Source: Naegleria gruberi
Lineage: Eukaryota
DNA: 64,000 nucleotides
NCBI GenBank assembly: GCA_000004985.1
Contig: GG738883.1
Direction: 5' to 3' (one strand)
Below, one piece after another: positions 5,653 to 49,093 of the stretch (the first letter of the stretch is position 1; each line of letters opens with the position of its first letter). The notes under the pieces are model-generated. The model did not search any database. It had not been told where the DNA came from and saw nothing but the letters and a program-made list of their open reading frames with translations. The position numbers and the translations under genes were made by a program.

Positions 5653-5724
5653 GGGACCATGGTCTAGTGGTATGATTCTCGCTTTGGGTGCGAGAGGCCG
5701 TGGGTTCGATTCCCACTGGTCCCC
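5653..5724 (+). tRNA. tRNA-Pro, anticodon UGG
   Basis: Cloverleaf by eye. The acceptor GGGACCA pairs with TGGTCCC. The anticodon loop is tttgggt, with U33 and G37 flanking TGG. The T-arm is GTGGGTTCGATTCCCAC. A T5 run follows at 5734-5738, a pol III terminator. Confidence 0.9.
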
Positions 5725-5829: not shown

Positions 5830-5901
5830 TAGCAAATCTAGGTTTCGATCCTAGGACCTATGGGTTATGAGCCCATCGCGCTTCCGCTGCGCCAATTTGC
5901 T
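5830..5901 (-). tRNA. initiator tRNA-Met, anticodon CAU
   Basis: The reverse complement is AGCAAATTGGCGCAGCGGAAGCGCGATGGGCTCATAACCCATAGGTCCTAGGATCGAAACCTAGATTTGCTA. Eukaryotic initiator hallmarks are present: an A1:U72 pair, three G:C pairs in the anticodon stem, and a T-loop AUCGAAA with A54 and A60. A T-run follows. Confidence 0.9.
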
Positions 5902-20172: not shown

Positions 20173-22578
20173 ATGTTAACAGACTTTGAAATCAATGATG
20201 AGAATAATCATCAGGACGATCAGGGCTATGATGAAATTATTGGAGGAGAAGATCATCATGTTCGTAATAGTAACGAAACAAAATTTGATAATTTACCGGA
20301 GGAAGTAATTGCAAATATTTGTTCATGTTTTATGAGAAATTCAACAACAAATTTAGCAGAAAGAAAAGGACAACAGGATTTTTCTGAAAATTCATTGTTT
20401 GAGTATGAAGATTTTCATACTGTCAATATTGATGATTTAATAGATATTTATCCATTATCGTTACTTAATAGAACTATTAGAAACAAAATTTTAAATAATA
20501 ATCATTTGTGGAATGAACAAATGATTGTTGATCTGAGTGAATTTTCAAAATCAACCAAATTATTTAAATATATGAATAAGATTAATGATTGGAATTATAG
20601 TTCATCTGATGATGATCTAATTGTAACAGTAGAAAGAGAAAGACTAAATATTGCTTTGAACTTTCTTTCATGTCTTGGTTTATCTGAATATATTAAAAAG
20701 TTAAAAGTTAGTTGCATATTGAAAGAAGTTGGGTTGAAGGAATCCATTTCATGGTCAAAACTCATTATTCACTCATTCCCTAATCTAACAGATATCATCT
20801 ATTACAGCCTCACTGATAGAAATGTTGTTAAGAGGTACGAATCCTTAGATTGTACTCAGGGAAAATGGCAAAATTTGAGCTCAATAACTGTTTATTTTGA
20901 TTTTACGTCATTATTATCTTTAATAGAAAACCACAAATCTACTATCAAGTCTATTGCTTTTTCTCCAAAAATGTCAGATAGGAAATCAACAGAAGAACTC
21001 TTAAAAAATCCCAAGATACTGGAAAATGTACAGAACATTATTATTAGTATGAAGTTTGATTCTGCAATGATGGAATCTAACAAAAATTATATGGAAAAGT
21101 TTGGTGCATTAAACATAGATTGTTCTGCTTTAGATATAGAGCGTTGGATTCCAAAACTGACACACCTTAAAAAGTTGGTGTTGGAAGGAATATACAATCC
21201 AAATTTTAAAATTGAAAACGTTAATTTCACAAATTTAACTGAGCTAGTGATATGTTTAGCTAATCAATCGGAATTAGCTTTCAACAATGTTCAAGCTCCA
21301 GAATTGCAAGAGCTTAGCATTTCTAATGCATCAATAGAAGCATCAACAGAGCCATTTAAAAATTTGCGATCATTGAAATTTCAAACTTGTAATTATGATC
21401 AAAATTTTTGGATCAAATCTCACCCTACACTCATGTACTTTAGCTTGTTTTTTCCAGAGTTTAAAGACACTATGTATAATCGCTCATTTTCATTGACTGA
21501 CAATCAAAGCTTACTTGTTATTTTACTTACCTCACTGGAATCTGTCTCTATAACTAACATCAACCCTTCTTGCAAATTATATATTGAAAAATGTCAATCA
21601 ATTCAGATTAATACTAGTAAGATATCTGAAATTTATATACAGAGCTATTCTACTGCTAGCGATATAAATATCAAAGGAGATCACTGTTCAAAACTTCATC
21701 TTCCAAAAGGTATTGAAAAATGTAAAATAGATTTGAATTCAATTAGTGAGATGAACTGTTATTATCAAGATAATTATTCTAAAATATTACCTCTTAGAGC
21801 ACATAACATTTCGTTAGAAACATTGCATATATCCTGCTTTAACATTCCTATTTTTATTAAGGAATTCTTAACATCCTTTAAATATATTGGAACTTGTAAA
21901 TGTGTTATCAGTCATGATCATACATACTCAAAAGTATACAAAAACATTAGTCCAAGCTCTAATCTTGATACTGACATGTCTAGTGTTGAGAAAATAATTA
22001 CTCATGGAGATATATCACTTCATACACATTTGACAAATAGCACCTCCTTACATACAATAATATCTGGAAGCAAATTAATCTGTTCTCCCAATACCACCTA
22101 CTTGAGCACTTCACTCACTCATTTGGAAACAAGTATTCAAAACTTTTCTTCACAATTTGACCTCCCTAATTTGAAAAATTTAATAATTTCTCATTCTGCA
22201 GATATAGAAATTGATCTTTCTCAATATCCACATCTAGAAGATTTTTCAATTTCTCATTCTAAGAATGTAAAAATTCGAAATACATCCAAGAGTATGGAGA
22301 AAATGAAATTTTTCCTATTGGAGGGTATTAATTCTCTTTCAATCAGTATTGATAATGTACAAGCCCCAAATATCCGAGAAGCCATCATTCACTCAATCAA
22401 AAGCATTGAACCTGGTACTGAGCCAATATTCACTTTATCTCATAGCCCAAAGATGCTCTTTTACTATGTTTCATTTGTGTGGAAACCAGCTTTTAAACCA
22501 AACCCACCTCGTACACATCAAGAAACTTTTGTAACGCCAATACCTAACGAAAACACCAGAAATTGTGAAATATTATAA
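20173..22578 (+). CDS. large hypothetical protein (801 aa) with internal repeats (NVQAPELQELSISNASIEASTEPF / NVQAPNIREAIIHSIKSIEPGTEPI), leucine-rich
   Basis: Long ORF with ATG in an A-rich context. Confidence 0.5.
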   Translation: MLTDFEINDENNHQDDQGYDEIIGGEDHHVRNSNETKFDNLPEEVIANICSCFMRNSTTNLAERKGQQDFSENSLFEYEDFHTVNIDDLIDIYPLSLLNRTIRNKILNNNHLWNEQMIVDLSEFSKSTKLFKYMNKINDWNYSSSDDDLIVTVERERLNIALNFLSCLGLSEYIKKLKVSCILKEVGLKESISWSKLIIHSFPNLTDIIYYSLTDRNVVKRYESLDCTQGKWQNLSSITVYFDFTSLLSLIENHKSTIKSIAFSPKMSDRKSTEELLKNPKILENVQNIIISMKFDSAMMESNKNYMEKFGALNIDCSALDIERWIPKLTHLKKLVLEGIYNPNFKIENVNFTNLTELVICLANQSELAFNNVQAPELQELSISNASIEASTEPFKNLRSLKFQTCNYDQNFWIKSHPTLMYFSLFFPEFKDTMYNRSFSLTDNQSLLVILLTSLESVSITNINPSCKLYIEKCQSIQINTSKISEIYIQSYSTASDINIKGDHCSKLHLPKGIEKCKIDLNSISEMNCYYQDNYSKILPLRAHNISLETLHISCFNIPIFIKEFLTSFKYIGTCKCVISHDHTYSKVYKNISPSSNLDTDMSSVEKIITHGDISLHTHLTNSTSLHTIISGSKLICSPNTTYLSTSLTHLETSIQNFSSQFDLPNLKNLIISHSADIEIDLSQYPHLEDFSISHSKNVKIRNTSKSMEKMKFFLLEGINSLSISIDNVQAPNIREAIIHSIKSIEPGTEPIFTLSHSPKMLFYYVSFVWKPAFKPNPPRTHQETFVTPIPNENTRNCEIL

Positions 22579-22649
22579 CAATTTCTGGTGTGAAATATTA
22601 GAAACTTTGGATAACTTTTTTTCATTGAATCTGTGGCCAATTAATTGTG

Positions 22650-24089
22650 TTACTCCTCATTCATAGAAATTTCTAAAAACCTCGTTCCATTAAAATCTTT
22701 AATTGTTTCAATAACAATCTTATCTATTGGATCTGATAATAGCAATACTTCTAACCCTTTCTTGGAATACTGTTCAATAAGTACTTCATTAATATTGGTT
22801 TCAATGCTTAGCAAAAAGTAAATGAATGTTTGTCCCTCCATCATTCTTGAACAATAATCCCTCAAACTCGACCACTCCGTCCTTTTGCAATTCGAGTGAA
22901 ATCTCAAAAGGTCTGTCAGAAGTAATCTATTTGAATCATCTAAAATCACTCCCATCTTGATTTTCCTTCCAAAATTTTGGTAGAAGTTCTTATAATCATC
23001 CTTATTTTCAGCAAGTCTTTCAAACATTTGCAATGTTGCCCTTGTCACACGTTTCCTTATTACTTTTAAAATTTTGTTTTCAGAAAATTGATATAAATTA
23101 AGAGGTAAATCTTCCGAATCTACCAATACTCTCATGAAATCCAAATAGTCTGGTACAATATATTTGCAATTATCCATTATAAACGTGCTTCTTATGTACA
23201 GATGACTGACAAGCTCATAATTAAAATGGGCCACCTTTGGAATAAACAATAGTAATTTGAATTCAAGAATTCCTTCAACTCTGTAATGAGACATGGTCAA
23301 GTAATCTTCCCAATCATTTGACATTTCCTTATAGAACTGTAAATATTCACTTTTTGAAATTTTTTCAGGATCTCTTGTCCACAAGGGCTGATCTTTGTTC
23401 AAAAACTCACATTTCTGTTCATTATTTTCATCCAGAGTCTGTAGTAACACTGGATATCTAATTGGTTTGGAAAGAACAGTCAGATACATCTTGAGAAATG
23501 AATTATCCAACAATACAAGTGAATCCTCATTCAAATATAGTGTTACTCTTGTTCCTCTTGTCAATTGTTCAGAACTTGTGTCACTTGCTACTTTGAAAAC
23601 TCCATCTCCACTCGATTTCCAAATAAATTGCTCATTTCCATGCATTTTAGATGAAACCACCACTTTTTCAGCAATCATAAATGCTAAATTAAATCCAAAA
23701 CAATTTCCAAACCGTTCCATTACACTACTTTTATCACCTTGTTTCAATAATTCAACATATAATTTCACTCTCTTACTCAAAGAACCTCCTAAATTCAACA
23801 CAAGATCATTCCTTGACATTCCAAATCCTGAATCAATAATACTCAATGATTTACTCTCCAAATCAGGAATTATTTTAATGAATAGTTGAGGTTCACTCAA
23901 CAAGACAGAAGAATCCGATAGACTTGCATATTTAATTCTATCCAAAGCATCAGAAGAGTTGGAAATTAGTGATTTGAGAATAGTTTGCAAGTTATTGGAA
24001 GGAGGAATTTGTTTCAATAATTTGATTAATTCTGCAATTTCCTCTTGAAATAAGAAAGTATCTTCCGATATCTGATGATCTGAAGCCAT
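22650..24089 (-). CDS. divergent, C-terminally short HSP90-family paralog (479 aa from MASDHQISEDTF...)
   Basis: EDTFLFQEEIAELIKLL...LISNSSDALDRIKYASLSD aligns with HSP90 ETFAFQAEIAQLMSLI...LISNSSDALDKIRYESLTD. IDSGFGMS aligns with DTGIGMT. FGNCFGFNLAFMIAEKVVV aligns with FGVGFYSAYLVAEKVTV. GTRVTLYLNED aligns with GTKVILHLKED. No MEEVD tail is present. Confidence 0.7.
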   Translation of the reverse strand: MASDHQISEDTFLFQEEIAELIKLLKQIPPSNNLQTILKSLISNSSDALDRIKYASLSDSSVLLSEPQLFIKIIPDLESKSLSIIDSGFGMSRNDLVLNLGGSLSKRVKLYVELLKQGDKSSVMERFGNCFGFNLAFMIAEKVVVSSKMHGNEQFIWKSSGDGVFKVASDTSSEQLTRGTRVTLYLNEDSLVLLDNSFLKMYLTVLSKPIRYPVLLQTLDENNEQKCEFLNKDQPLWTRDPEKISKSEYLQFYKEMSNDWEDYLTMSHYRVEGILEFKLLLFIPKVAHFNYELVSHLYIRSTFIMDNCKYIVPDYLDFMRVLVDSEDLPLNLYQFSENKILKVIRKRVTRATLQMFERLAENKDDYKNFYQNFGRKIKMGVILDDSNRLLLTDLLRFHSNCKRTEWSSLRDYCSRMMEGQTFIYFLLSIETNINEVLIEQYSKKGLEVLLLSDPIDKIVIETIKDFNGTRFLEISMNEE

Positions 24090-24573
24090 TTTTTTAATAT
24101 ATTGTAATGGATAATATTTTGTAAACAACATGCAGGAAAAATAGCGTTGGTCTGATGAAAATTAAATTGTCATCAACACAATTTCTTATGGAAAGACACC
24201 ATACAATAAAAGTAAGTTGTAGGTTCAATTACTGGTCCTAACAAGGATTTTTCTTCAGCTAAAACACTCAAAAAAATACAACAAATTCACTTCTAAAAAA
24301 AACCTCCATCGGTACGGTTTTGGCTTTTTTCGTTCTCTTCATCACAAAGTTAAACCGTTGTTGTGTATTTTAAAAAGGCTTTGCAGAATAAGAAATAACA
24401 TCGGCCCACAACATCAACATCTTCAACAACAACAACAACAAAATTTAAAAACACAACAGGTGATAGATTTCTACCTGATACAATCTAGGCTATTAACTGA
24501 TTCATCATCAATTTGATCAAAATACTTTTCAACAATACAATTTCACGGATATGATAAAAACAAAACAATCACA

Positions 24574-25941
24574 ATGAATACTCAACTCTCCAATAATAAC
24601 CAATCCTCTTCCTCTGAACCCCACGAAATTTCAACTCACAAACAAAATGATGAAGCAAACAATATTCCAGTTGACGTTGCTTCTGGTGATCCTAATTCCC
24701 AATCATGGGTGAATTTACAACAACAGTTCATGGGAAATCCACATTACATGCCACCAAATATGACACCACAACAATACTATTATATGACTCTGTGGTTAAT
24801 GCAACAAAACGGAGGCAAGGATGATCCCAATAAGAAGAAAACAGACAATCCATCAATAATAGATCCATCAGGTGCTGCTCCAAACGGAGAAGCTGAAAAT
24901 CCATTAGGTATCTACCCACCACAAGTATATTTCCCATTTCCTGGCAACAATCCACCAAATAATTCACAAATTCCATCCCTAAATGTTGTTCAATCACAAG
25001 AAGACACAAACATTTCACAAGAAGCTGCAACACAAGAAAAGAAAACTAAAAGAAGAACAAAAGCCGCATCAACAACTCCTAAATCTTCAACTAAAAAACG
25101 AAAAAACACAAAGGAAGCAACAACTCCTGTTGAAGAAAGTTCTAACACACCAGATACACCAAAGAAAAAAAAGAAAAAGGAAACAACTTCTTCAAATGCA
25201 GGATCTAGTAGTAGAGGATCGAGAGGAGGACTTAGACATTTTAGTTTTAAAGTTTGCGAACTTGTTCAAAGAAAGAAAACAACTACAATTAATGATGTTG
25301 CTGATGAACTGGTTCAAGCAGAACTTCAAGATGAAGACAGTAAATCTGATGACAAGAACATTAGACGACGTGTTTATGATGCTCTCAACGTTTTAATGGC
25401 TTTAAATATTATTTCAAAAGATAAGAAAGAGATTAAGTGGAAGGGTTTACCTGTAGATTCACAAAAAGAATGTGAAGCATTGAATCAAATCAAATTACAA
25501 CGTTTAGAAATGATTCAAAAAAAAACTCAACAATTACAAGAACTTGAAAAACAACATCGATCATTATCAAGTTTATGTCAAAGAAATTCAAGCATGAATT
25601 TTGCAGAATCTAAGAGGATTGAATTACCTTTTATTATTGTTCATACATCAAAATCAACACAAATTGAATGCGAAATGGATGAAAATAGGTCTGAGGTATT
25701 TTTCAATTTCGACAAGCCTTTCGAAATTCATGATGATAATGAGATTTTATATAGGTTAAATCTAGGTTCAGATCAAAATCAATCTTCAAATCAACCAAGT
25801 GAGTCGAATAATATGAACATTTCAACATCAGGTCAAGCAGAAGATGACTTCTTTTCATTGGAACAACCCACAAACACTTCCTCTCCAAAAAAACCTTCTA
25901 ATAGCACTTCAAACAATGAAAAAGATATGGACACTCAATAA
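24574..25941 (+). CDS. tfdp: transcription factor Dp (TFDP, E2F dimerisation partner) homolog (455 aa)
   Basis: LRHFSFKVCELVQRKKTTTINDVADELV...DKNIRRRVYDALNVLMALNIISKDKKEIKWKGLP matches the DP winged-helix DNA-binding domain almost motif for motif. The downstream DP dimerisation region is also present (LPFIIVHTSKSTQIECEMDENRSEVFFNFDKPFEIHDDNEIL). Confidence 0.85.
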   Translation: MNTQLSNNNQSSSSEPHEISTHKQNDEANNIPVDVASGDPNSQSWVNLQQQFMGNPHYMPPNMTPQQYYYMTLWLMQQNGGKDDPNKKKTDNPSIIDPSGAAPNGEAENPLGIYPPQVYFPFPGNNPPNNSQIPSLNVVQSQEDTNISQEAATQEKKTKRRTKAASTTPKSSTKKRKNTKEATTPVEESSNTPDTPKKKKKKETTSSNAGSSSRGSRGGLRHFSFKVCELVQRKKTTTINDVADELVQAELQDEDSKSDDKNIRRRVYDALNVLMALNIISKDKKEIKWKGLPVDSQKECEALNQIKLQRLEMIQKKTQQLQELEKQHRSLSSLCQRNSSMNFAESKRIELPFIIVHTSKSTQIECEMDENRSEVFFNFDKPFEIHDDNEILYRLNLGSDQNQSSNQPSESNNMNISTSGQAEDDFFSLEQPTNTSSPKKPSNSTSNNEKDMDTQ

Positions 25942-29816: not shown

Positions 29817-32441
29817 ATGAACAATCGACAACTTCCCTCCAATTTTAACTTTTACGGGGAGACAACAACAGACTATCCCTCTGATTTTAATATGACAACA
29901 AATTTATTTGATGATTTTCTTGCTTCTTTAACTGAAACACATCTACTCACGGATAGTAATGTAAATACAAACAATAGCATGCTCCTTCCGCATAATGTAT
30001 CTTCTAATTTAATACCAACAACATCATCAACAAGTACATCATCATCGTCGACAATGTTGCCACCAATAACGGCACAAGATCTAACCGGTACTACATCTTC
30101 ACAAAACGATTCAAATTCTGGTCAACTTGTTACAAACGTTTCTCTAATTACAAATAATCAAAAATATCCATCAGGAATAATTCAAGATAATGTACATTTG
30201 TTTTTTGGTTCTCATGGTTCTTCAGATACATATAAATTGGAAGTTCAGGTAACGCCAATTGTTGATCAAATGATAATGAGTAATCAAACTAAACTTGTCA
30301 TACAAGTTAAAAGAGAAAATAGCAAGGAACTTTTGAAGAAGGCTCGTTGGGTATTGTCTTTGGAGAATAGAAAAGAAGAATGTATTTATCTCGTTCAAAA
30401 TAATAATTTTCCAAAAACAAGAAGAGGAAGAGGTATTAACGAATCTTGTTTATTTGCCTTCTCTCTGGAAAATTTACAAAATGTTCCTGAACAATTATTT
30501 CCAACATTTAAATTTCAATTTTACTCCAAGCTCATACCAGGAAGTTTCCCAACAGATTCGTTCACTGTTCCACCATCAACACAACTTTCTAGGCCAGAAG
30601 TATCCACATCCTCATCATCACCACCTACACAACAAATCATTTCCAATCCACCTATGATAGTAATGGAACAACCAAAACCTGTTATGAATAATATTCTCTT
30701 CCCAGCTTCTGCCTTTAATCAGTCAACCCAATCCTTTGATCCTATGTCACTTTTTAACTCTCTTACCGAACAATCCCAACAACAATCAGATGATCTAATT
30801 TATCAATCTTCAGGAAAAAAGAGGAAAAAGATAGAAATCTTTGAACCAAAGTTATTCTCAATCAATCCAATGTATGGAACTATTGGAAGCACTGTTGTTT
30901 TATTGGGCAATTTTAACGTTTTAAGTGAAAAAGCAGTCAAGGTCCATTTTGATCAAGTTGTTGTTGAGCATCCACATGCCGTTACGCCAAATACTATTGT
31001 TTGTACTGCTCCTGATCATGAAGATGGTAACTCTTTTGTTCAAGTTGTAGAAGAATTTGAACACTTCCAAATGAAAACTGAGCACAAAATTTTCAGATAT
31101 ATTTCACAAAGCTTCCAAATGGGTATCAACCAACTCGTCTTTAATTCAGGCCCAAGACCTTACCAATCACCACCTTCATATCTTTCTCCTGGAGCTCCAA
31201 ACACTGACTCATCTTCTAGTTCTAACTCTTATAACTCAGGGCAAATGTTTTATGATAGTCTTAGACAAAATAATTTACATAGAGCAGCTTATGATGGTGA
31301 TTTGAGGGCTGTTGTTTCAATTCTTGAAAGCAGATCATGTGATCCATTTGAATTGGACAATTTTAAGAGAAGTCCATTCCACATTGCTTGTGCTATGGGT
31401 CACTTATCAGTTGTTCAAGCATTATGGACTCATATTGTTGATATTCTTCCTGAAGAAGAGGATGAAGATGAAGACGTACTTGCATCTGTTCTCTTATATC
31501 AACAGGATAGTTTCTCAATGACACCTCTCGATTTAGCTTCAAAGATTATAGACGACAATGAACATGATGTTATTTTCTTCCTTAAAGACAAATTAGTCAC
31601 CTATCCAAACTTGAATACAAAGCTAGGTAATGGTGATCTAGTTCTAGTAGAAAACGAGGTACACGAACGTAAACTAAATCAATTGAAGCACTTATTCCCA
31701 TCCTTTGACGATTTCTTCATTAGAGAAATTCTTGAGAGATGTGGTTGGAGTGAGACAGAAGCTGCTGCTTTGGTTTTATGCCAACAATTTGAATCCAATA
31801 TCTGTGCCAAATCATCTATGACTTCTAAGGAAGTTTTCATGGTAATAGAGAAACAAAAGGCCATCAATCAACTCATTGATTTTATGAACATGTCTCCCTT
31901 CTCAACACTTTTAGCAAACAAACTTTCTAGATTCTTTGATCCAGAGAAGCATTTCGAAAATTATGAAAAGGAAATCAAACACAAGTTTTCTAAAAAGATT
32001 TACAAGATTGAAAACATTGTTCATCCCGAGCTTCAACTCAGATTCAGCCAATATATCAATCAAGAAGAAAACCCACTGATATTTATGACATTCCACGGAA
32101 CAAGTGAACAAAATGTTTCTAGTATTAAGGAACACGGTCTCTTGGTTCCTGGAAAGGGTAATGATATTAGACCAGTTAATGGTAGCGAGTATGGATTGGG
32201 TATTTACACATCATTCTCGGGTACTTCATCAATTGAGTATTGTTATGGTGGTAACAAGATGTTTGTTTGTGCTGTGTGCGTTAGGGACAAGATTGTTATA
32301 AGTGAAGATGGAAATGTTCTTGTTGTTTTTGATGAAAGATCAGTATTGCCTTGCTGGCTGATAACATTTGAAAACCGAGTTGAAAATGTTCAAGAACCTG
32401 TCAATATGAACTATAACAATAACCTTCTCAGACAAATCTAA
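29817..32441 (+). CDS. multidomain PARP-family protein (874 aa), gene A. An S/T-rich N-terminal region is followed by IPT/TIG, ankyrin repeats, a CUE domain and a C-terminal PARP catalytic-like domain.
   Basis: TIG domain: PKLFSINPMYGTIGSTVVLLGNF...IVCTAPDHEDG. ANK: LHRAAYDGDLRAVVSILE...SPFHIACAMGHLSVVQAL. CUE: LNQLKHLFPSFDDFFIREILERCGWSETEAAALVL. PARP-like: FHGTSEQNVSSIKEHGL...YGLGIYTSFSGTSSIEY...VLVVFDE. Confidence 0.75.
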   Translation: MNNRQLPSNFNFYGETTTDYPSDFNMTTNLFDDFLASLTETHLLTDSNVNTNNSMLLPHNVSSNLIPTTSSTSTSSSSTMLPPITAQDLTGTTSSQNDSNSGQLVTNVSLITNNQKYPSGIIQDNVHLFFGSHGSSDTYKLEVQVTPIVDQMIMSNQTKLVIQVKRENSKELLKKARWVLSLENRKEECIYLVQNNNFPKTRRGRGINESCLFAFSLENLQNVPEQLFPTFKFQFYSKLIPGSFPTDSFTVPPSTQLSRPEVSTSSSSPPTQQIISNPPMIVMEQPKPVMNNILFPASAFNQSTQSFDPMSLFNSLTEQSQQQSDDLIYQSSGKKRKKIEIFEPKLFSINPMYGTIGSTVVLLGNFNVLSEKAVKVHFDQVVVEHPHAVTPNTIVCTAPDHEDGNSFVQVVEEFEHFQMKTEHKIFRYISQSFQMGINQLVFNSGPRPYQSPPSYLSPGAPNTDSSSSSNSYNSGQMFYDSLRQNNLHRAAYDGDLRAVVSILESRSCDPFELDNFKRSPFHIACAMGHLSVVQALWTHIVDILPEEEDEDEDVLASVLLYQQDSFSMTPLDLASKIIDDNEHDVIFFLKDKLVTYPNLNTKLGNGDLVLVENEVHERKLNQLKHLFPSFDDFFIREILERCGWSETEAAALVLCQQFESNICAKSSMTSKEVFMVIEKQKAINQLIDFMNMSPFSTLLANKLSRFFDPEKHFENYEKEIKHKFSKKIYKIENIVHPELQLRFSQYINQEENPLIFMTFHGTSEQNVSSIKEHGLLVPGKGNDIRPVNGSEYGLGIYTSFSGTSSIEYCYGGNKMFVCAVCVRDKIVISEDGNVLVVFDERSVLPCWLITFENRVENVQEPVNMNYNNNLLRQI

Positions 32442-32770
32442 TTGTAAAATATAATTAAACAAAAGTTTATTCCATTGATCAATGGTTCATTTTCATAATA
32501 ATAATCAGTTGCTTCAGCTTTGTAATAAGCATACTTCATTTCCAATTGAATTTCGTCATTATCATCCCTTGTAGCATAGAGTTTAAATTGACCTTTGTAA
32601 CTACATTGTGGCACCTCTAACAGCTCCAAAGAGATTCATCACACCTGCACATTTAGAAACGAGTACCTTTGGTGATTATTTCTTTAAATTCTTTGGTGAG
32701 AACCTTCTGGCCGTTGCGTTCCATATTGGATAGTTCTAAATTTGATTGGTGGAATTAATTCTCCTCTTAA
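32438..32770 (-). pseudogene. 3' fragment (last ~110 codons) of a third paralog of the secreted Cys-rich (MACPF-like) family. It abuts and overlaps the stop codon of gene A.
   Basis: 32418..32670 matches 37226..37570 at >90% nucleotide identity, apart from a 95-bp indel. 32680..32760 matches 37843..37950 with deletions. The minus-strand reading ...LEVPQCSYKGQFKLYATRDDNDEIQLEMKYAYYKAEATDYYYENEP is homologous to the C-terminus of the 14278..15912 protein (...VYGCRSAAVRLFVSRNWQDEIQVSVVYSFIDD). Confidence 0.6.
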
Positions 32771-33119
32771 TGTGAAATTTCTAACATTTTTCAATTATCA
32801 TCATTTCACCATTTTCACCCATATCAATTTTATTCATATTCAATACATCTTTGTATTCGGTTCCATCATGTGGATTGGCGCCAAAATTGATAATGAAACC
32901 TTAATCAAAAAAAAATGCTCAAACATGATCACACCATGCGCTTTATTCTCTCATTGTTCAATGACGGAGATGAATTTGTTTATTTAAAAAATTAGCAATG
33001 GTGAGAAATAGTATCTGAATTTGGTGGGAATTCTAATAATTTATTACTTTGGTTAAATCGTGATGAATGGTGACCAACATTGATCCAGCTGTCAGCATTT
33101 CTAGATTCTTCATAAAAAA

Positions 33120-36100
33120 ATGGCAGATTTTCAGAAGGCGTTTTATGCTGCGAGAGACGGCAAAATTGATGAATTTAATAATTATTTTAATGAACAAGAT
33201 GTTAATAATAAATCACAGTATGGTCAAACCATGTTGTGGGTTGCTTGCTTCAACGGACATTTAGAAATTGTTAAATTATTATTATCATGTAAAACAATTG
33301 ATGTTAATTTGGGAGTAAGTATTTAATATTTAATGTAATTTTATATTTATAATATTAGAATGTAAGTATTTAATATTATTTTTATTTATATTTATAATAT
33401 TAGAGAGTAAGTATTTTAATATTTAATTTTATTTATAATATTAGGATGTAAGTATTTAATATTTAATTTTATTTATATATTTAATATTAGTCACCATTAT
33501 ACACTGCTTGCCAAAATGGACATTTAGAAATTGTTAAATTATTATTATCATGTAAAACAATTGATGTTAATTTGACTGTAAGTTTAATATTTAATGTAAT
33601 TTTATATTTATAATATTAGGATGTAAGTATTTAATATTTAATATTATTTATATTTATAATAATAGTATGTAAGCATTTTAATATTTAATATTATTTATAT
33701 TTATAATATTAGAGAGTAAGTATTTAATATTTAATTTAATTTTATACTTTTAATTAGGATGTAAGTTAAATATTAAATATTATTTATATTTATAATATTA
33801 GTATGTAAGTATTTTAATATTAATTTTATTTATATATATAATATTAGTCACCATTATACATTGCTTGCCGATATGGATATTTAGAAATTATTAAACAATT
33901 ACTTCAACATCCAAATATTGAAATAGATAGCACATTGTCAGTGAATGGAATTAATATTCAAACAATTAAAAGTAACATGGAAAAAGAACAACAACAAATA
34001 TTAAAAGAACAATTAGAACAAGAAGAGTTTAAACAACTAGAAGTGGAAAGATTAGAAAGAGACAGAATTAAAAAATTAGAAATGGAAAGATTAGAAAGAG
34101 AAAGAATTGAAAAGGAACATTTACTAAAAATAGAAAGAGAAAGATTAGAACGAAAAGAATTGGAGAAAAAACAACCATTCATAATCACATCTGAAACATT
34201 TTCAAAATTATGTTCACTCAACCAACAAATTGATAATAATAGAAGAAAAATTGAAAAACAATTTGAATCAATTCAATCATTTTTTTCTTCTATTCAAATT
34301 AAGAAAGAATTTGAAGATGAATATTTAACAATTTGTGATAATTTAAATAATTGTTGTAATTTAATTGACAAATTAACAAGTAATAATTATAATATTGAAA
34401 ATAACGAACATTTGTTAAATATTAATAATTTGATGAATAATATTAGAACTATATTGGAATTTATTAATAATCAAAAATACTTATTTAAATTACAATCTTA
34501 TTCAGAAGTATTAAAAGACAAATTACAATTATTTAATGAATTTAATTCTCAATTTATTAAACAAGAATTATTTGACAATATTGAAATGAGTGAACAATCT
34601 ATTAAGAATATAAAAAGTATTAATATAGTTCCAACTCATAATAAATTTAGAAATGAAACTAAAACAACATTACAACAAGTTACAAAACAATTATCAAATA
34701 TTGTTAACTCAATCAATAATTGTAATGAAATTGATTTGTCACAATTTTCAAATAATTTACAAAAAGCAATGGAATTATCAGAACAAGAAGAATTATATTT
34801 AAATAATATATTGTCAAATTGTAAAGTATTAATTTCAGACAATGATCAAATGAATATTTTACAATTATTTAATTTTTATCAAACACAAGAATTAAATTGT
34901 AAATTATTAATTCAAGAAACAATTCCATATATAATTGAAAAATATGAAATGTTACAAAATATTATAAATATTATGGATGATTATTCAAATTTATCAGAAC
35001 AATTTAAAACTATTCAAAGACAAAAAACAAAAATTACAAGAAATTTACATATTGTAAATCTAGATATTGAAGGATTAAAAGATGAATTGAAACATGTCAA
35101 TAATGACGATGAAATTAAAGATGAAATTCAAACTAAAGAAAAGAATTTAATTGAATTAAAATCTAATTTGAAGGAAAATATTCAAAAGTTAAATGAAATT
35201 AAAATGAAATTTCTTCAATTAAAAACAATTGGATTTGATATTAAATCAAACATGACAAGTGATTTATTATCTAATTTAAATATTAATGAAATGACACCTG
35301 AAATGTTTAAAGAAATTAAACCAATTCAAAATTGGAATGGAAATCATAATGTTTTTATTGGAATTGATTTAAATGATAAAAAACATATAATTAAACAATA
35401 TAATTTAAAAGATAAGAAATCAATTGAAGGTTTAGAAAAGGAATTGAAAATAACAAACAAATTAAAGCACGCAAATATTATTGAAATTGAAGGAATTTAC
35501 ACTGAAGCTGATAACAAACACAGTACCACTAATGTATTTATTGTAATGCCATATTATTCAAATGGAAATTTGAAAGAATTTATTCAAACTAAAAGAAATC
35601 ATCAAAGTAATACTTTAAATTTATTATTTTGGGAAAGAACATGGAGACAATTATTAATTGGAATTCAACATGTACATTCCAGAGGTGTTATTCATTGTGA
35701 TATAAAACCAGAGAATATATTTGTTGGTGATAAAGATGAATCAACAGAATATTATCCAATTATTTTAGGTGATTTTGATATTAGTTTAGATATAACAAGT
35801 AGAACAATGAATTTATTCACAAGAACAAGTGGAATTGCTGGTACATTAGATTATTTATCACCTGAACTAGTGAATGGAAAAACATCAGCAACATTTAGAT
35901 CTGACATGTTTGCATTTGGTAAAACAATTCAAAATTGTATGACAGATCAAGAATTGAAACAATTCAAATCATTGAATAATTTATGTGAAGAGTGTTTGAA
36001 TTCAGATGTAAATTTGAGACCATTTGCATCTGATGCACTTGCAAATGAATTCTTTATGAAAGAAACATTATTAGATGAAGTTAAAATTCAGAAACATGTT

Positions 36101-37113
36101 CAATTAATCGAAAATCAATCAAAAGAATTGAAAGATTATCACAATCAATTGAATGAATTTGAATTGAAAATGAAAAAAAATCATGAAAATTTGAAAACTG
36201 AAATTTTAAATCTAGAAAAGGAAAAGAAACAATTTTCAAATTCAAAGCAAAGGAAAACGAAGAAATTTCAAAGAAATTACAAAATTTGAAACAAAAAGAA
36301 ATTGAAATTGAGAAAATGGAAAAGGAAATTAAAGAATCAAAATCCAAACAATTAACAATATCACTTCCAGGTTATTGGAAAAGAAACACATTCCCAAGCT
36401 ATTCGAAAAGATATTACACTGTTGATGTTACACAATATTTAAAAGATACAATGCAAGAAATTATGAATGCATCCTGTAATTCTGCAACACTTGGATCTGG
36501 AAGAGATCAAGTATCAAGAATTATGTATTCTAAATTGATTGTTTCCAGTGTTTCAAGAATTGAAAATTCAACACTTTTCACTTCATTCAAATCAAGAATG
36601 AATCAGTTAATTTCATATCAAGATTCAATTAATTCACTCCAAGTTCAGACTGAAAATATTTCAAAAACATCAAAAACATTTGAATGGATGAAAACAATTG
36701 GATTGAATTCTAATATGAATGAAAAATATTTATGGCATGGAACAAAACCTGAATTTGTGAATACAATTGCAGAACATGGATTCGATGAAAGAGTTGCAAA
36801 TTTAAATGGATTATTTGGAGCAGGTATTTATTTTGCAGAATATTGTTCAAAGAGTGATCAATATTGTACGCCTGATCATTCCAATGAATTTACTCTATTA
36901 TTATGTAGAGTTGTAATGGGAAGACAAATTCATTTCACAAAACAAGTGATGAATAATCAGAGAAGACCACCTGAAATTTCAGGAAGTAATAATAGAGTTT
37001 ATGATAGTGTTATTGGTCAATCAAATACTTCAACTAATTCATATAGAGAATTCATTGTCTATGATAAATGTCAATGTTATCCTGAATTTATAATTAAATA
37101 CAAGAGACAATAA
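33120..37113 (+). CDS. gene B: ankyrin repeats + long coiled coil + Ser/Thr protein kinase domain + coiled coil + PARP catalytic domain. Exons are 33120..33314, 33491..33577 and 33848..36289, with introns 33315..33490 and 33578..33847. There is a single-base frame break near 36254-36257, after which the ORF continues to 37113.
   Basis: AAAAAAATG start. Exon-1 ANK: MLWVACFNGHLEIVKLLLSCKTIDVNLG|GTAAGT. Exon 2: SPLYTACQNGHLEIVKLLLSCKTIDVNLT. Exon 3: SPLYIACRYGYLEIIKQLL..., in frame with ORF 33935..36289. Kinase motifs: HCDIKPENIF, GDFDIS, GTLDYLSPE. PARP motifs: LWHGTKPEFV, GAGIYFAEY, YREFIVYD (an H-Y-E triad). Restoring one A in the A-run at 36254-36257 joins the kinase ORF to the PARP ORF through a continuous coiled coil (...SNSKQKENEEISKKLQNLKQKEIEIEKMEKE...). 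Confidence 0.7.
33315..33490 (+). repeat. intron 1 of gene B: a tandem array of about 4 mini-intron-like units of ~45 bp each (GTAAGTATTTAATATT...TTTATAATATTAG)
   Basis: Direct reading shows repeated GTAAGT...ATATTAG units separated by 3-4 nt. Confidence 0.8.
33578..33847 (+). repeat. intron 2 of gene B: a tandem array of about 6 mini-intron-like units of ~45 bp each. The flanking exons 2 and 3 are diverged duplicates of the exon-1 ankyrin cassette.
   Basis: As above. In addition, 33262..33314 and 33521..33577 are nearly identical at the nucleotide level. Confidence 0.8.
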
Positions 37114-46525: not shown

Positions 46526-49093
46526 TTACCAATAGTCACCACAAGTACATTTTCCATCCTTAAAATGGTGGAACCGTGAGGCATCACGAATTATTATTTC
46601 ACAATTTCTAACTGCTGACAACAATTTAGTGGCATTATGGCAATCTCCACAAACCCTCAAGTTCGTTGTTAAATGAATTGTTGATGTATTTGGCTGTTTG
46701 TTGAAAGCATATGCCATGGCTATCTTTTCAGAATGTTTGTATAGTAAATCCAGTTTTTCTGCATCAGTGTCAACATTTTTAATCACCCAGCTTAGGTCTG
46801 GTTGATAACCTGCCTTAATGAGATCAGCTACCATTTTTTTTAGTTCTTTCTCTATCATCTTTATCTCTGGATGCTCCTTTTCTTCACAAACAAAAGAATG
46901 CATTTTCCCTTCGATACAAACTTGCGTCATACTTGGTAACTTTTTAAATCCACCAAATTCCATCAACTCTTTAACCCTTTTGGCGTCTTCGTACATGTCT
47001 TGAGAAGCATAAATGTTAGCCATTAAAATGAAGTGAGATGATTCCACTTCATTTCGTTCAATAAGCATATTGAAAAGTTTCTCTGCTAAGGTGACATTGT
47101 TGAATTTTCTACAGACCCCAAATAAAGTGGACACAGTAACAACGTCAGGACTGATACAAGACCCTAGCAATTTCTCAGCCTCTTTAATATTACCTTTTCT
47201 TGCCAATGCATCGATCAAACATGCCAAATGTATGTTTGATGGTTTGATTGAATATTTGGACTCCATGTGGTTGTATATTTCTTTTGCTTCGTCCACCATA
47301 CCACAATGGCCACATGCATGCAACACACATGTTAGAGTATGCTCATTTGGTTTAATATTTTCTTTGCTCATTTGGTTCAAAAGTTCAATAGCCTTCAATC
47401 CCATTCCATGTATTGCATAAGCATTTATGATACAGGTCCACGAAACAACATCTTTGTTTGGTACTGAGAGGAAAACTTCATGTGCACTTGTTAAATCTCC
47501 ACATTTTGCATACATATTAATGAGTGCATTAAACAAGTTGTGGTCTCTGATTCTTAGCTCACTAATATTTCTGTGAATTATTTTTCCAAAATCCAAATTT
47601 CCAAATTCAGAGCATACAGAAAGAAGCAAAATAAGGGTTGGTACATCTGGAACCAAGTTGTTATTGATCATATCTTCGTACAGGGAGATAGCTTCTGGCA
47701 TTTTCTTAAGATTGGCCCATAACTTTATCATACATCCATAATGTGCTGTAATTCTTGCTATCTTGAATAAGGTGTTCATATTATCGAACAAGAAACATGC
47801 TTCTTGTTCCATAGAATGATTTGCAAAAAATGTTAACATAACCGTCATGGTTACATCATTCGGTTGGGTATACTTTGGCATGATCTTGAAATAAAGTAAT
47901 AATCTTTTTGTATCTCCATTTTGGGAGCATCCCTTAAGAAATGAGTTCCATGTTATTACATCTTTGAATTCCATTTGGTTGAATATTGATTCTGCATGTT
48001 CTACTTTACCACTCTTCAAAAACGAATCCAAAAGAACATTGAAAACAAAAACAGAGGTAACGCCTTCACTAATAATAATACTTTCTATTTCTTCCAACCT
48101 ACCCTCTTCACAATACGTTGGTATGATTAGTGTCCAAGTTGTATCGTCCAGTTGTTTCGTTTTAAGCATCTTCATAAACAGTTCTATTGCTGTTTGAGTT
48201 TCCCCACATTTCGAAAACATGTTAATGAGATTATTCTGAACAGTAATACTCCTGTATAGTTCATAATTTTTCATAATTGTTTCGTGCAATTTTTTCCCAT
48301 TAACTAGAGATCGAGTAATAGCACATCCTTTCAACAAAAGAATAAATGTTACTTCGTTTGGAATGAGTTCTTTCTCTTGTCTGTAAATATTCATAGCTTC
48401 CTCACTTTCTCCATTCTCAATCAATGCCTTTATCAGACAATTAAAGTGAATAATATCTGGAGAAACGCCATATTCTTTCATTGAAAAATAAATTTCTTTG
48501 GCCTTTTCGCTCATGTTTGAATTGGCAAGAGAATTCAATAGTGAAGAAAATGTTTTGGGTTCTATTGGAATCTGTTTGCTTTTGACATATTTTAACAATT
48601 CAAATATGGTGGAAATATGTCCTGTATTGCAAAATCCTCTAATAATATAATTCCATGTTGGTGGATTTACTTTCTTCTTATATTCTTCTTGTAATGAAAG
48701 CATAATTGTTGAGAGATCATCCCATAATGAGGTACTTCTGTCACTGCTTTCGATTTTGCAATAACTTATTAATGAAATAATAACAAAATAATTTAAAAGT
48801 GATTTCTCCTTCAATAAATAATAGGCTTTAAAAGAATCATCCAACGACAACAATCTTTTTGATATGAGTAAGTTGGCATCAAAGGAATTTGGTTTCTGGA
48901 AAAAATGTTTCGTTGCTGAATCAACTTTTCCTTCGGCTATTAAATTTCGAACCACTCGATAATCAAAAACAGGAGAGTACGTATGGAAACTATGAAATTT
49001 ATTTGTATCACTAAACTTCAGAGTTTCCATATAAGATTTCTTGCACTTAAGGTTCTTGAAAAGAAAATTTTCAGCACAAACCAGCACACGCAT
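46526..49093 (-). CDS. pentatricopeptide-repeat protein with a C-terminal DYW cytidine-deaminase domain (855 aa); a putative organellar C-to-U RNA-editing factor
   Basis: AAAAAAATG start. There are more than 15 PPR-like 35-aa repeats. The C-terminus reads HSEKIAMAYAF...LRVCGDCHNATKLLSAVRNCEIIIRDASRFHHFKDGKCTCGDYW*, carrying the HxE and CxDCH zinc motifs and the terminal DYW. Confidence 0.85.
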   Translation of the reverse strand: MRVLVCAENFLFKNLKCKKSYMETLKFSDTNKFHSFHTYSPVFDYRVVRNLIAEGKVDSATKHFFQKPNSFDANLLISKRLLSLDDSFKAYYLLKEKSLLNYFVIISLISYCKIESSDRSTSLWDDLSTIMLSLQEEYKKKVNPPTWNYIIRGFCNTGHISTIFELLKYVKSKQIPIEPKTFSSLLNSLANSNMSEKAKEIYFSMKEYGVSPDIIHFNCLIKALIENGESEEAMNIYRQEKELIPNEVTFILLLKGCAITRSLVNGKKLHETIMKNYELYRSITVQNNLINMFSKCGETQTAIELFMKMLKTKQLDDTTWTLIIPTYCEEGRLEEIESIIISEGVTSVFVFNVLLDSFLKSGKVEHAESIFNQMEFKDVITWNSFLKGCSQNGDTKRLLLYFKIMPKYTQPNDVTMTVMLTFFANHSMEQEACFLFDNMNTLFKIARITAHYGCMIKLWANLKKMPEAISLYEDMINNNLVPDVPTLILLLSVCSEFGNLDFGKIIHRNISELRIRDHNLFNALINMYAKCGDLTSAHEVFLSVPNKDVVSWTCIINAYAIHGMGLKAIELLNQMSKENIKPNEHTLTCVLHACGHCGMVDEAKEIYNHMESKYSIKPSNIHLACLIDALARKGNIKEAEKLLGSCISPDVVTVSTLFGVCRKFNNVTLAEKLFNMLIERNEVESSHFILMANIYASQDMYEDAKRVKELMEFGGFKKLPSMTQVCIEGKMHSFVCEEKEHPEIKMIEKELKKMVADLIKAGYQPDLSWVIKNVDTDAEKLDLLYKHSEKIAMAYAFNKQPNTSTIHLTTNLRVCGDCHNATKLLSAVRNCEIIIRDASRFHHFKDGKCTCGDYW

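Follow-up and report, generated by a model that had tools for sequence, protein, structure and literature searches.

A truncated and highly divergent Hsp90-like protein in Naegleria gruberi with substitutions in its ATPase-cycle elements

The 64-kb stretch of Naegleria gruberi DNA analyzed here (contig GG738883.1; hereafter, the window) carries on its minus strand an intact single-exon coding sequence at 22650..24089, comprising 479 codons and a TAA stop (22650-22652), as documented by the listing of open reading frames, database identity and a Pfam match. Counted from its first ATG, at 24131 in the upstream region, the in-frame ORF spans 22650..24131 and 493 aa; a start at the ATG at 24089 gives the 479-aa product, exactly the extent originally predicted. 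This product is 100% identical to N. gruberi P0001 (EFC41917.1 / XP_002674661.1 / NAEGRDRAFT_44674), whose public gene model also comprises one exon and 479 aa and is annotated only as an uncharacterised "predicted protein". The remaining five frames across the interval contain 18-55 stops, and a random run of 479 codons with the same composition would be free of stops with a probability of ~1e-17 to 1e-19, so that the open frame is not a product of chance. Its accessions were found in no paper, and papers matching '44674' proved unrelated to this gene. The HSP90 used in RT-qPCR of N. gruberi is a different gene (XM_002682845.1), whose primers are absent from the window. In the databases queried, neither a transcript-derived copy of XP_002674661.1 nor a contig record was found. 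Tryptic peptides unique to the protein include FGNCFGFNLAFMIAEK and VLVDSEDLPLNLYQFSENK.

Downstream, a convergent 801-aa ORF occupies 20173..22578 on the plus strand, so that the two stop codons are separated by 71 nt (22579..22649; 72 bp end to end). Upstream, an intergenic region of 484 bp (24090..24573) is shared with a divergently transcribed gene for a DP transcription factor (24574..25941, plus strand). A scan for GAAnnTTCnnGAA allowing at most one mismatch detected no heat-shock-element-like site in 24090-24573; across the window such sites number 52, against 43.8 +/- 6.5 expected by chance, and are thus not above chance. A viral origin was considered and rejected, as the protein has no relative in IMG/VR and the neighboring genes are ordinary eukaryotic ones.

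Affiliation of the product with the Hsp90 family is supported by several comparisons. The Pfam HSP90 profile (PF00183) is matched at 266.6 bits (E 6.7e-79; cutoff 24.4) over aa 237-490 in the numbering of the 493-aa ORF, phmmer comparison with structures of human HSP90-alpha gives E 2e-109, and a Foldseek search with the AlphaFold2 (AF2) model matches Hsp90 N-M structures with E 5e-43. The generic GHKL profile, HATPase_c, scores 20.7 bits, under its cutoff of 26.4, and P0001 is the sole match lacking precomputed PF02518/PF13589 annotations; an N-domain fold matching that of Hsp90 is nonetheless predicted with pLDDT of 80-95. Among subfamilies, cytosolic Hsp90 is nearest (E ~1e-109), followed by GRP94 (~1e-81), HtpG (~1e-78) and TRAP1 (~1e-45). 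As judged by alignment, neither the signal peptide and KDEL of GRP94 nor the presequence of TRAP1 is present: similarity to these subfamilies is weaker, the C-terminus reads NEE, and the first conserved strand begins at residue 9-10, which leaves no space for a targeting extension. Judged by these comparisons, the protein is homologous to cytosolic Hsp90 across the N-terminal domain and the middle domain and ends at the boundary between middle and C-terminal domains (M/C boundary), in agreement with the original prediction, which had aligned it along the same two domains. It is extremely diverged, however, sharing 42-47% identity with all cytosolic Hsp90s compared, whereas these share 66-100% among themselves.

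The N-terminal, GHKL/Bergerat-type domain (aa 1-216; 23442..24089, minus strand), delimited by alignment to human HSP90-alpha and canonical Hsp90s, combines a preserved adenine pocket with a disrupted catalytic apparatus. Retained pocket residues are N44, D47, D86, G88, G90, M91, N99, F133 and T180, corresponding respectively to human N51, D54, D93, G95, G97, M98, N106, F138 and T184, so that motif II (DxGxG; D86, G88, G90, with M91) and the motif IV Thr (T180) are both present. The core of the domain (aa 41-97) is the best-conserved segment, retaining 21 of 26 highly conserved columns. In motif I the Asn (yeast N37 / human N51) is kept as N44, but the catalytic Glu (yeast E33 / human E47) is replaced by Ser40 (codon TCA, 23970..23972, minus strand), the local alignment reading 'LKSLISN' against the canonical 'LRELISN'. 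Helix 1 is rewritten as well, from 'IINTFYSNKEIFLRE' to 'LKQIPPSNNLQTILKS'. The ATP lid (aa 98-139; 23673..23798, minus strand) is degenerate by alignment and column conservation: human K112/S113/G114/T115 are replaced by S/K/R/V, only 12 of 33 highly conserved columns are retained, and pLDDT falls to 64-80, compared with mainly 80-95 in the domain at large. Within it the GxxGxG motif (human G132/G135/G137) has become ERFGNCFGFN (aa 125-134; nt 23688-23717), in which human G132 is replaced by Glu (E125) and two residues, N129 and C130, are inserted.

Two altered motifs had been quoted in the original prediction as evidence of a degenerate nucleotide-binding lid, and they fare differently in the alignment. 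FGNCFGFN is indeed degenerate, since ERFGNCFGFN has lost the first Gly and gained two residues relative to GQFG--VGFYS; GFGMS, on the other hand, is a conservative variant, because DSGFGMS keeps the Asp and both Gly residues of D(T/S)G(I/V)GMT. A survey of the Bergerat residues thus identifies E47->S, G132->E with the adjacent insertion, and replacement of lid K112 and G114 as the substantive changes, to which R400->Q in the middle domain is added. The most telling losses (Glu to Ser, Arg to Gln, helix 1, the charged linker, and the shortening of a loop at aa 286-296) had not been part of that prediction.

The charged linker is reduced to a remnant of ~11 residues (aa 217-227; 23409..23441, minus strand; alignment A1, columns 227-290), with ~50-60 residues of the canonical cytosolic Hsp90 linker missing; correspondingly, HMMER matched the human protein as two stretches, 17-232 and 288-544, against an unbroken query. 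The middle domain that follows (aa 228-475; 22665..23408, minus strand), assigned from the Pfam HSP90 match and alignments, retains W237, W260, PLWTR, NDWED, FIMDNC, VDSEDLPLN and NKILKVIRK. The loop at aa 286-296 is shortened by a 6-residue deletion, and the catalytic Arg (yeast R380 / human R400) is replaced in the alignment by Gln334 (codon CAA, 23088..23090, minus strand), directly followed by a 2-residue deletion ('LPLNLYQ--FSENK' against 'LPLNISREMLQQSK'). In the AF2 model pLDDT is 31-60 over a large part of the first subdomain of the middle domain (aa 240-340), and under 50 in the segments aa 286-308 and aa 327-332, weak confidence that could reflect structural decay.

Alignments and tblastn place the C-terminal tail, ...EISMNEE and its stop, at 22650..22664 (minus strand). 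The protein thus extends no further than the counterpart of human residue ~548, at the M/C boundary, and both the C-terminal dimerisation domain (CTD) and the MEEVD-type TPR-binding motif are absent from the ORF, bearing out the earlier claim that it stops near 480 aa without either; that the terminal 'MNEE' is a degenerate mimic of MEEVD is speculation. When full-length Naegleria Hsp90 was compared with the whole window by tblastn, only its aa 1-510 were matched (24071..22674), and neither strand of the 64 kb showed similarity to the CTD (aa 515-699) at E <= 10. Three-frame translation of the 1.7 kb downstream revealed no frame open for more than 58 codons and no Hsp90 similarity, and the convergent gene, which ends 72 bp past the stop, is too close for a 3' exon to fit in between. 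Since no exon for a CTD was found, and since the ATP-binding residues are altered, the original prediction of a non-canonical protein withstands the case raised against it, namely a normal C-terminal domain downstream together with fully conserved ATP-binding residues.

It is nevertheless conceivable that the CTD is encoded elsewhere and joined by trans-splicing, or across an intron that is very long or missing from the annotation, to yield a full-length though divergent Hsp90. A precedent exists in Giardia, where Hsp90 is encoded as separate HspN and HspC halves (PMC4006730, PMC8494341); in addition, the stop overlaps a GT in GTAA context (…GAGGA|GTAAC…) that could conceivably act as a 5' splice site, and the search covered 64 kb of the genome. 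Against such an arrangement stand the lack of CTD-like sequence on both strands of the window, the proximity of the convergent neighbor, the position of the break at the M/C boundary (the Giardia split precedes the catalytic Arg), the public single-exon model of 479 aa, and the presence in N. gruberi of two intact full-length genes. We regard a split gene as highly improbable; moreover, with the catalytic Glu, the catalytic Arg and the lid gone, even a product supplied with a CTD would not be a canonical Hsp90.

The two full-length genes encode normal Hsp90A proteins (P0279 and P0280), both ending in MEDVD. The relationship of the truncated paralog to these was assessed at nine positions where the canonical copies of Naegleria and Willaertia have specific states: it shares one of the nine (W406), and shows the general eukaryote state at four others, a pattern which hints that the duplication may be older than the divergence of those canonical copies. 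A neighbor-joining (NJ) tree placed the protein among other long branches, with sister groups that were unstable over 200 bootstraps; this grouping is long-branch attraction, and on account of the long branch the tree gives neither a resolved placement nor a date for the duplication. No ortholog was identified: nothing exceeded 45% identity in a word-indexed search of 5.8 billion proteins or in an exhaustive phmmer search of 1.84 billion representatives, and the same protein searches yielded no ortholog from N. fowleri, N. lovaniensis or Willaertia magna. P0121, a candidate relative of similar length (477 aa), was rejected as a partial, linker-less fragment from Oikopleura that is otherwise canonical, with all catalytic residues present.

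Such an orphan raises the question of whether the gene is a relic, that is, a duplicate of Hsp90A which lost its 3' end by rearrangement, is no longer constrained as a chaperone and is becoming a pseudogene, either recently inactivated or unexpressed. Several features are in keeping with this: the failure of both large searches, which include the three related heterolobosean genomes, to recover a counterpart; the disappearance of all catalytic features; substitution of 99 of 257 near-invariant Hsp90 columns, with 11 more deleted; the low pLDDT at aa 240-340; the lack of an upstream site resembling a heat-shock element; and the documented occurrence of pseudogene-like truncated cytosolic Hsp90 ORFs in Trichomonas vaginalis (PMC5973626). 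The reading frame itself argues otherwise. Simulated neutral decay to the observed 45% identity (n=300) introduced a mean of 21.7 stops (range 7-38), where none is observed. The mean BLOSUM62 score at substituted sites is +0.08, as opposed to -0.58 +/- 0.11 under neutrality and -0.73 +/- 0.13 after permutation, making the substitutions ~6 SD more conservative than the neutral expectation, and the indels, at least six in number, are all multiples of three and in frame. Nor are the losses random. Highly conserved columns are retained at 22 of 58 positions in strand 1/helix 1 and the lid, and at 125 of 199 elsewhere (Fisher p = 0.0009), so that residue losses are concentrated in ATPase-cycle elements while the pocket core is spared. 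Beyond the stop there is no recognizable C-terminal half of the kind seen in the Trichomonas cases.

Premature stops, frameshifts and a neutral pattern of substitution are thus all lacking, and the sole "disabling" feature is that the protein stops short at the M/C boundary. The complete absence of stops where some 22 would be expected, together with conservative substitutions and in-frame indels, is unlike an old pseudogene, and these are signatures of purifying selection that would have kept the frame open; they span the history of the lineage, and a very recent loss of function would escape them. As no ortholog was found, dN/dS is not computable and long-term retention is not demonstrable by comparison. 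On balance, we view a decaying relic as a credible but unlikely account of this gene.

Comparison with known Hsp90 systems helps to define what is distinctive here. With canonical Hsp90A (human HSP90-alpha/beta, yeast Hsp82 and Naegleria P0009/P0279/P0280) the protein is homologous along the whole of the N and M domains, sharing the pocket N, D, GxG and T, the middle-domain motifs and, in the AF2 model, the N-M fold; it differs in lacking linker, CTD and MEEVD, in the Glu->Ser and Arg->Gln replacements, in its broken GxxGxG and in its rewritten helix 1. The truncated ORFs of Trichomonas vaginalis likewise represent extra protist Hsp90s of cytosolic type with an N domain and part or all of an M domain, but these are reported to result from nonsense mutations in otherwise alignable copies, whose C-terminal halves persist as adjacent ORFs (PMC5973626); the Naegleria copy, by contrast, is extremely diverged, has no CTD remnant past its stop and bears signatures of selection in its frame. 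Giardia HspN is similar in that a genomic ORF encodes just the N-terminal part of Hsp90. The Giardia lamblia halves, however, rejoin before the catalytic Arg to form a fully canonical, active ATPase (PMC4006730, PMC8494341), whereas the Naegleria ORF includes the whole M domain, has lost the catalytic residues and has no second half within 64 kb. P0124, from the foraminifer Bolivina argentea, and P0127, from a metagenome, are cytosolic-type proteins that also have a degenerate lid and a replaced catalytic Arg (NVSLE and NISHE, respectively), and P0124 resembles the Naegleria protein further in lacking the linker and a normal CTD. Neither is an ortholog (40% identity): both keep the catalytic Glu, P0127 retains its CTD, and it is through long-branch attraction that the NJ tree unites them with the Naegleria protein. 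The same domain content is seen in CTD-deleted N-M versions of Hsp90 made in the laboratory and in the N+M construct of GRP94 used for crystallography (PDB 2o1w), on which the AF2 model superposes best (TM 0.56); these are engineered, with catalytic residues intact, whereas the Naegleria gene is natural and its catalytic residues are replaced too. An Hsp90 deprived of its CTD is a monomer with almost no ATPase activity.

The retained pocket bears on how such a protein might act. Yeast E33 and R380 are the residues essential for ATP hydrolysis by Hsp90. An atypical nucleotide-dependent chaperone could be envisaged, in which the pocket binds ATP, and hydrolysis or dimerisation proceeds by non-canonical means, for example through transient N- or M-domain contacts with the canonical Hsp90s; preservation of the nine pocket residues, and the standing of the N core as the best-conserved segment of the protein, are in line with this. 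Yet both hydrolysis-essential residues are replaced, the phosphate-contacting glycines and Lys of the lid are lost, the strand/helix-1 segment through which the N-terminal domains dimerise is rewritten and the constitutive dimerisation domain is absent, all of which make such activity improbable.

The features of this gene are perhaps best reconciled, at a confidence slightly above even, with a third Hsp90A-derived gene that is restricted to its lineage, evolves very fast and has been kept for a binding role, its product being putatively monomeric and ATPase-dead. This derivative has shed the C-terminal dimerisation domain with its MEEVD tail and the charged linker, along with the elements of the ATPase cycle (the catalytic Glu, the Gly-rich phosphate-binding lid, the N-terminal strand and helix 1, and the catalytic-loop Arg), while keeping folded N and M cores and the residues of the pocket that contact adenine. 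The product would be an N-M "pseudo-Hsp90", presumably monomeric and devoid of ATPase activity, for which a clamp cycle would be impossible. With its dimerising tail and ATPase residues lost, it probably acts through binding of partners rather than by normal chaperoning; binding would presumably be stoichiometric and use the surface of the middle domain, the pocket of the N domain or both; this pocket may still accommodate adenine nucleotide or another small ligand. The protein could serve as a holdase or an adaptor, or as a decoy vying with both canonical Hsp90s for clients or for co-chaperones that bind the N and M domains. Expression of the gene, and a "regulatory or pseudo-chaperone" role of the kind first suggested for it, are what we infer from sequence. 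A narrower proposal, that a selected, hydrolysis-dead N-M monomer binds nucleotide, clients or N/M-binding co-chaperones by way of its pocket and middle-domain surfaces and so tunes or buffers canonical Hsp90 as competitor or decoy, is a doubtful one as it stands. The pseudo-Hsp90 might also serve one life stage in particular, for instance encystment or the amoeba-to-flagellate switch.

Few eukaryotic proteins are as conserved as Hsp90, whose function is considered to require both dimerisation and an ATP-driven clamp cycle. If the Naegleria gene is maintained, it would represent a natural test of what Hsp90 can usefully do without that cycle, be it the binding of clients, of co-chaperones or of nucleotide, and Hsp90 would join the enzymes that have selected pseudo-enzyme derivatives. 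If it is unexpressed, it would be no more than a decaying duplicate confined to its lineage, and of minor consequence. The gene model NAEGRDRAFT_44674 could carry a more informative name than "predicted protein".

Read from its ATG at position 24089, the minus-strand ORF at 22650..24131 gives a 479-residue protein whose first residues, MASDHQISEDTFLFQEEI, align with the start of canonical Hsp90; this protein is 100% identical to the N. gruberi 'predicted protein' EFC41917.1 / XP_002674661.1 / UniProt D2VN17 / NAEGRDRAFT_44674, whose public model is a single exon on a 371-kb scaffold. The original prediction of homology to the N-terminal (N) and middle (M) domains of HSP90 is borne out by a Pfam HSP90 match of 266.6 bits and by matches to solved structures, best to cytosolic HSP90-alpha/beta (E ~1e-109) and weaker to GRP94 (1e-81), HtpG (1e-78) and TRAP1 (1e-45). 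By descent, the protein is a member of the HSP90 family, of Hsp90A type. The generic GHKL profile HATPase_c scores only 20.7 bits against it (cutoff 26.4 bits), and it alone among the large-protein-search matches has PF00183 without PF02518/PF13589. Its alignment covers human HSP90-alpha residues 17-232 and 288-544, ending at the M/C boundary, and the charged linker is absent since no query residues lie between these segments. The predicted stop before the C-terminal dimerisation domain (CTD) also held: a tblastn search of the whole 64 kb with full-length N. fowleri Hsp90 returned a single match (aa 1-510 at 24071..22674) and nothing for aa 515-699, and in the 1.7 kb after the stop no frame is open for >58 codons or resembles Hsp90, leaving no 3' exon with a normal CTD found within the 64 kb. 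Two features of the terminus may be coincidental: the protein ends (22650..22664, minus strand) in EISMNEE, an acidic tail with Met faintly like the MEEVD/MEDVD of cytosolic Hsp90, and its TAA stop overlaps a GTAA resembling a 5' splice site (GAGGA/GTAAC).

In Hsp90, hydrolysis requires residues E33 and R380 (yeast), and the Gly-rich lid shuts over the phosphates. Constitutive dimerisation comes from the CTD; if that is missing, N-terminal dimerisation and ATPase activity collapse. MEEVD brings in TPR co-chaperones. Residue states were read from alignments, with codons verified in the DNA (human numbering first). The catalytic base E47 is S40; K112/S113/G114/T115 have become S/K/R/V; R400 of the catalytic loop is Q334, followed by a 2-residue deletion; the near-invariant IINTFYSNKEIFLRE reads LKQIPPSNNLQTILKS, with one residue inserted; and a middle-domain loop at aa 286-296 has lost 6 residues. 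The FGNCFGFN motif, singled out initially as altered, is a true disruption, G132-Q133-F-G135-V-G137-F-Y being replaced by E-R-F-G-[N-C]-F-G-F-N with loss of the first Gly and insertion of 2 residues; GFGMS, likewise read as degenerate, is instead a conservative variant retaining both Gly residues. The pocket residues N51 (N44), D54 (D47), D93 (D86), G95/G97 (G88/G90), M98 (M91), N106 (N99), F138 (F133) and T184 (T180) are kept, and therefore the adenine half of the pocket survives; K58 is conservatively replaced by R51. What has been lost is the phosphate/lid half, along with the two residues for hydrolysis, the N-terminal segment and the dimerisation domain. By mechanism the protein does not qualify as a working Hsp90, and presumably cannot run the canonical cycle. 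An atypical nucleotide-dependent chaperone, a minor rival that the surviving adenine half favours and the lost hydrolysis residues oppose, seems improbable.

Compared over their N and M domains, cytosolic Hsp90s of plants, animals, fungi, algae and heteroloboseans (73 sequences) share 66-100% identity among themselves (mean 77%), versus 42-47% between each of them and the Naegleria protein. Of the 257 columns conserved in >=95% of those 73 sequences, 147 are unchanged in the Naegleria protein, 99 carry a substitution and 11 are deleted. These losses are unevenly distributed: cycle elements retain 22/58 conserved columns as against 125/199 elsewhere (Fisher p = 0.0009), with 10/25 kept in strand 1/helix 1, 12/33 in the lid, 21/26 in the N core and 48/73 in the large M subdomain. 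An AF2 model built with a 74-sequence alignment (mean pLDDT 77, pTM 0.60) is confident in the N domain, weaker in the lid (64-80) and low at aa 240-340, falling below 50 at aa 286-308 (the shortened loop) and 327-332 (the former catalytic loop). Foldseek matched it to Hsp90 chains (E 5e-43); its best global superposition was with an open GRP94 N+M construct (TM 0.56), closed-state dimers giving TM 0.44.

The main rival, a decaying relic, is possible though rather unlikely. The sense frame has no internal stops (18-55 in the other five); a run of 479 random codons of the same composition would lack a stop with a probability of ~1e-17 to 1e-19. Neutral HKY decay, simulated in 300 runs from a back-translated Naegleria Hsp90 to the observed 45% identity, produced 7-38 stops (mean 21.7) and no stop-free run (0/300). 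Where residues have been replaced, the changes are much more conservative than those produced by neutral decay or by permutation (mean BLOSUM62 at substituted sites +0.08, versus -0.58 +/- 0.11 and -0.73 +/- 0.13), and every indel that separates the gene from canonical Hsp90, at least six in all, is a multiple of three. The absence of stops, the conservative substitutions and the in-frame indels thus indicate purifying selection for a folded protein over most of the lineage's divergence; very recent death is possible. A 164-aa antisense ORF at 23395..23889 (plus strand) lies in the frame with 18 stops, the fewest of the five non-coding frames, and is probably a by-product of sense-strand codon composition.

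Truncated cytosolic Hsp90 ORFs of Trichomonas vaginalis arose by nonsense mutation and still adjoin their C-terminal halves (PMC5973626), and Giardia HspN/HspC, split before the catalytic Arg, are restored by trans-splicing to a fully active enzyme (PMC4006730). Unlike either, the Naegleria gene combines extreme divergence with the lack of any CTD remnant and of catalytic residues, and bears signs of selection; a Giardia-style split gene, of which the 64 kb showed no second half, is very improbable.

The gene is supernumerary, because N. gruberi has two canonical full-length cytosolic Hsp90s, P0279 and P0280 (91% and 86% identical to N. fowleri Hsp90), both terminating in MEDVD. It is also a single-species orphan: neither the word-indexed nor the exhaustive phmmer search found an ortholog, the best matches after the protein itself being canonical Hsp90s at <=45% identity, including those of N. 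fowleri, N. lovaniensis and Willaertia magna. A match of the same length, P0121, proved to be a partial canonical Oikopleura fragment. The rare Trp406 is common to the protein and all Naegleria and Willaertia copies, and is the only one of nine clade-specific states it shows, the general eukaryote state occurring at four; an NJ tree grouped it merely with other long branches. In that tree the full-length Hsp90A copies, two each in N. gruberi and Willaertia magna (P0044, P0281), cluster by species, not by paralog, which suggests independent duplications or gene conversion.

We found no paper naming the gene, and no transcript-derived copy is on record. The N. gruberi 'HSP90' for which RT-qPCR showed heat induction is another gene (XM_002682845.1), whose primers are absent from the window. 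No heat-shock-element-like site was found in the 484-bp upstream region, which is weak evidence because Naegleria promoter elements are not known to be characterised.

The window as a whole is nuclear DNA (G+C ~32%), the neighbouring genes are ordinary eukaryotic ones with no sign of a viral or mobile island, and no relatives of the protein were found in IMG/VR. A divergently transcribed DP transcription factor gene lies 484 bp upstream; a convergent 801-aa ORF (20173..22578, plus strand), without Pfam match, ends 72 bp from the Hsp90-like stop, and its sequence resembles degenerate leucine-rich repeats. Farther neighbours include MACPF, cNMP-gated channel, PARP-ankyrin, kinase, LRR, PPR-DYW and dynamin-like genes. 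The MACPF/perforin-domain ORF (14278..15912, plus strand; 5.7e-13) is followed by one at 16003..16974 (plus strand) whose match to the actin profile is confined to the first half of that profile (7.9e-27); this ORF is presumably a single exon of an actin-family gene. The lowest-G+C stretch (32001..36000, 21-27%) falls on the N-terminal half of a 784-aa ORF (33935..36289, plus strand; listed mechanically with a TTG start) that has a protein kinase domain as its C-terminal part; the 5' part of this ORF probably contains introns or is of low complexity. An 855-aa ORF (46526..49093, minus strand) combines numerous PPR repeats with an E motif and, at the C-terminal end, a DYW deaminase domain (PF14432, 1.9e-39); it is an organellar C-to-U RNA-editing factor of the plant type. 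Genes of this DYW-PPR class have already been described in Naegleria gruberi. Three tRNA genes are present: Pro(TGG) (5653..5724, plus strand) and Met(CAT) (5830..5901, minus strand), a divergent pair ~100 bp apart, and Asp(GTC) (17366..17436, plus strand).

A monomeric binding protein fits best, because the cycle elements were lost together while the domain cores, the adenine-contacting residues and stretches of the middle domain, NKILKVIRK and NDWED among them, were kept. On balance the product is probably such a protein, one that could serve as a holdase or adaptor, or else as a decoy or regulator. Two further Hsp90-like proteins, non-orthologous and independent, have a degenerate lid and a replaced catalytic Arg: P0127 (metagenome, 623 aa) and P0124 (Bolivina argentea transcriptome, 534 aa), the latter with Arg replaced by Leu and with neither the linker nor a normal C-terminal domain. 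In protists, degenerate derivatives of Hsp90 may be something that recurs and has escaped study.
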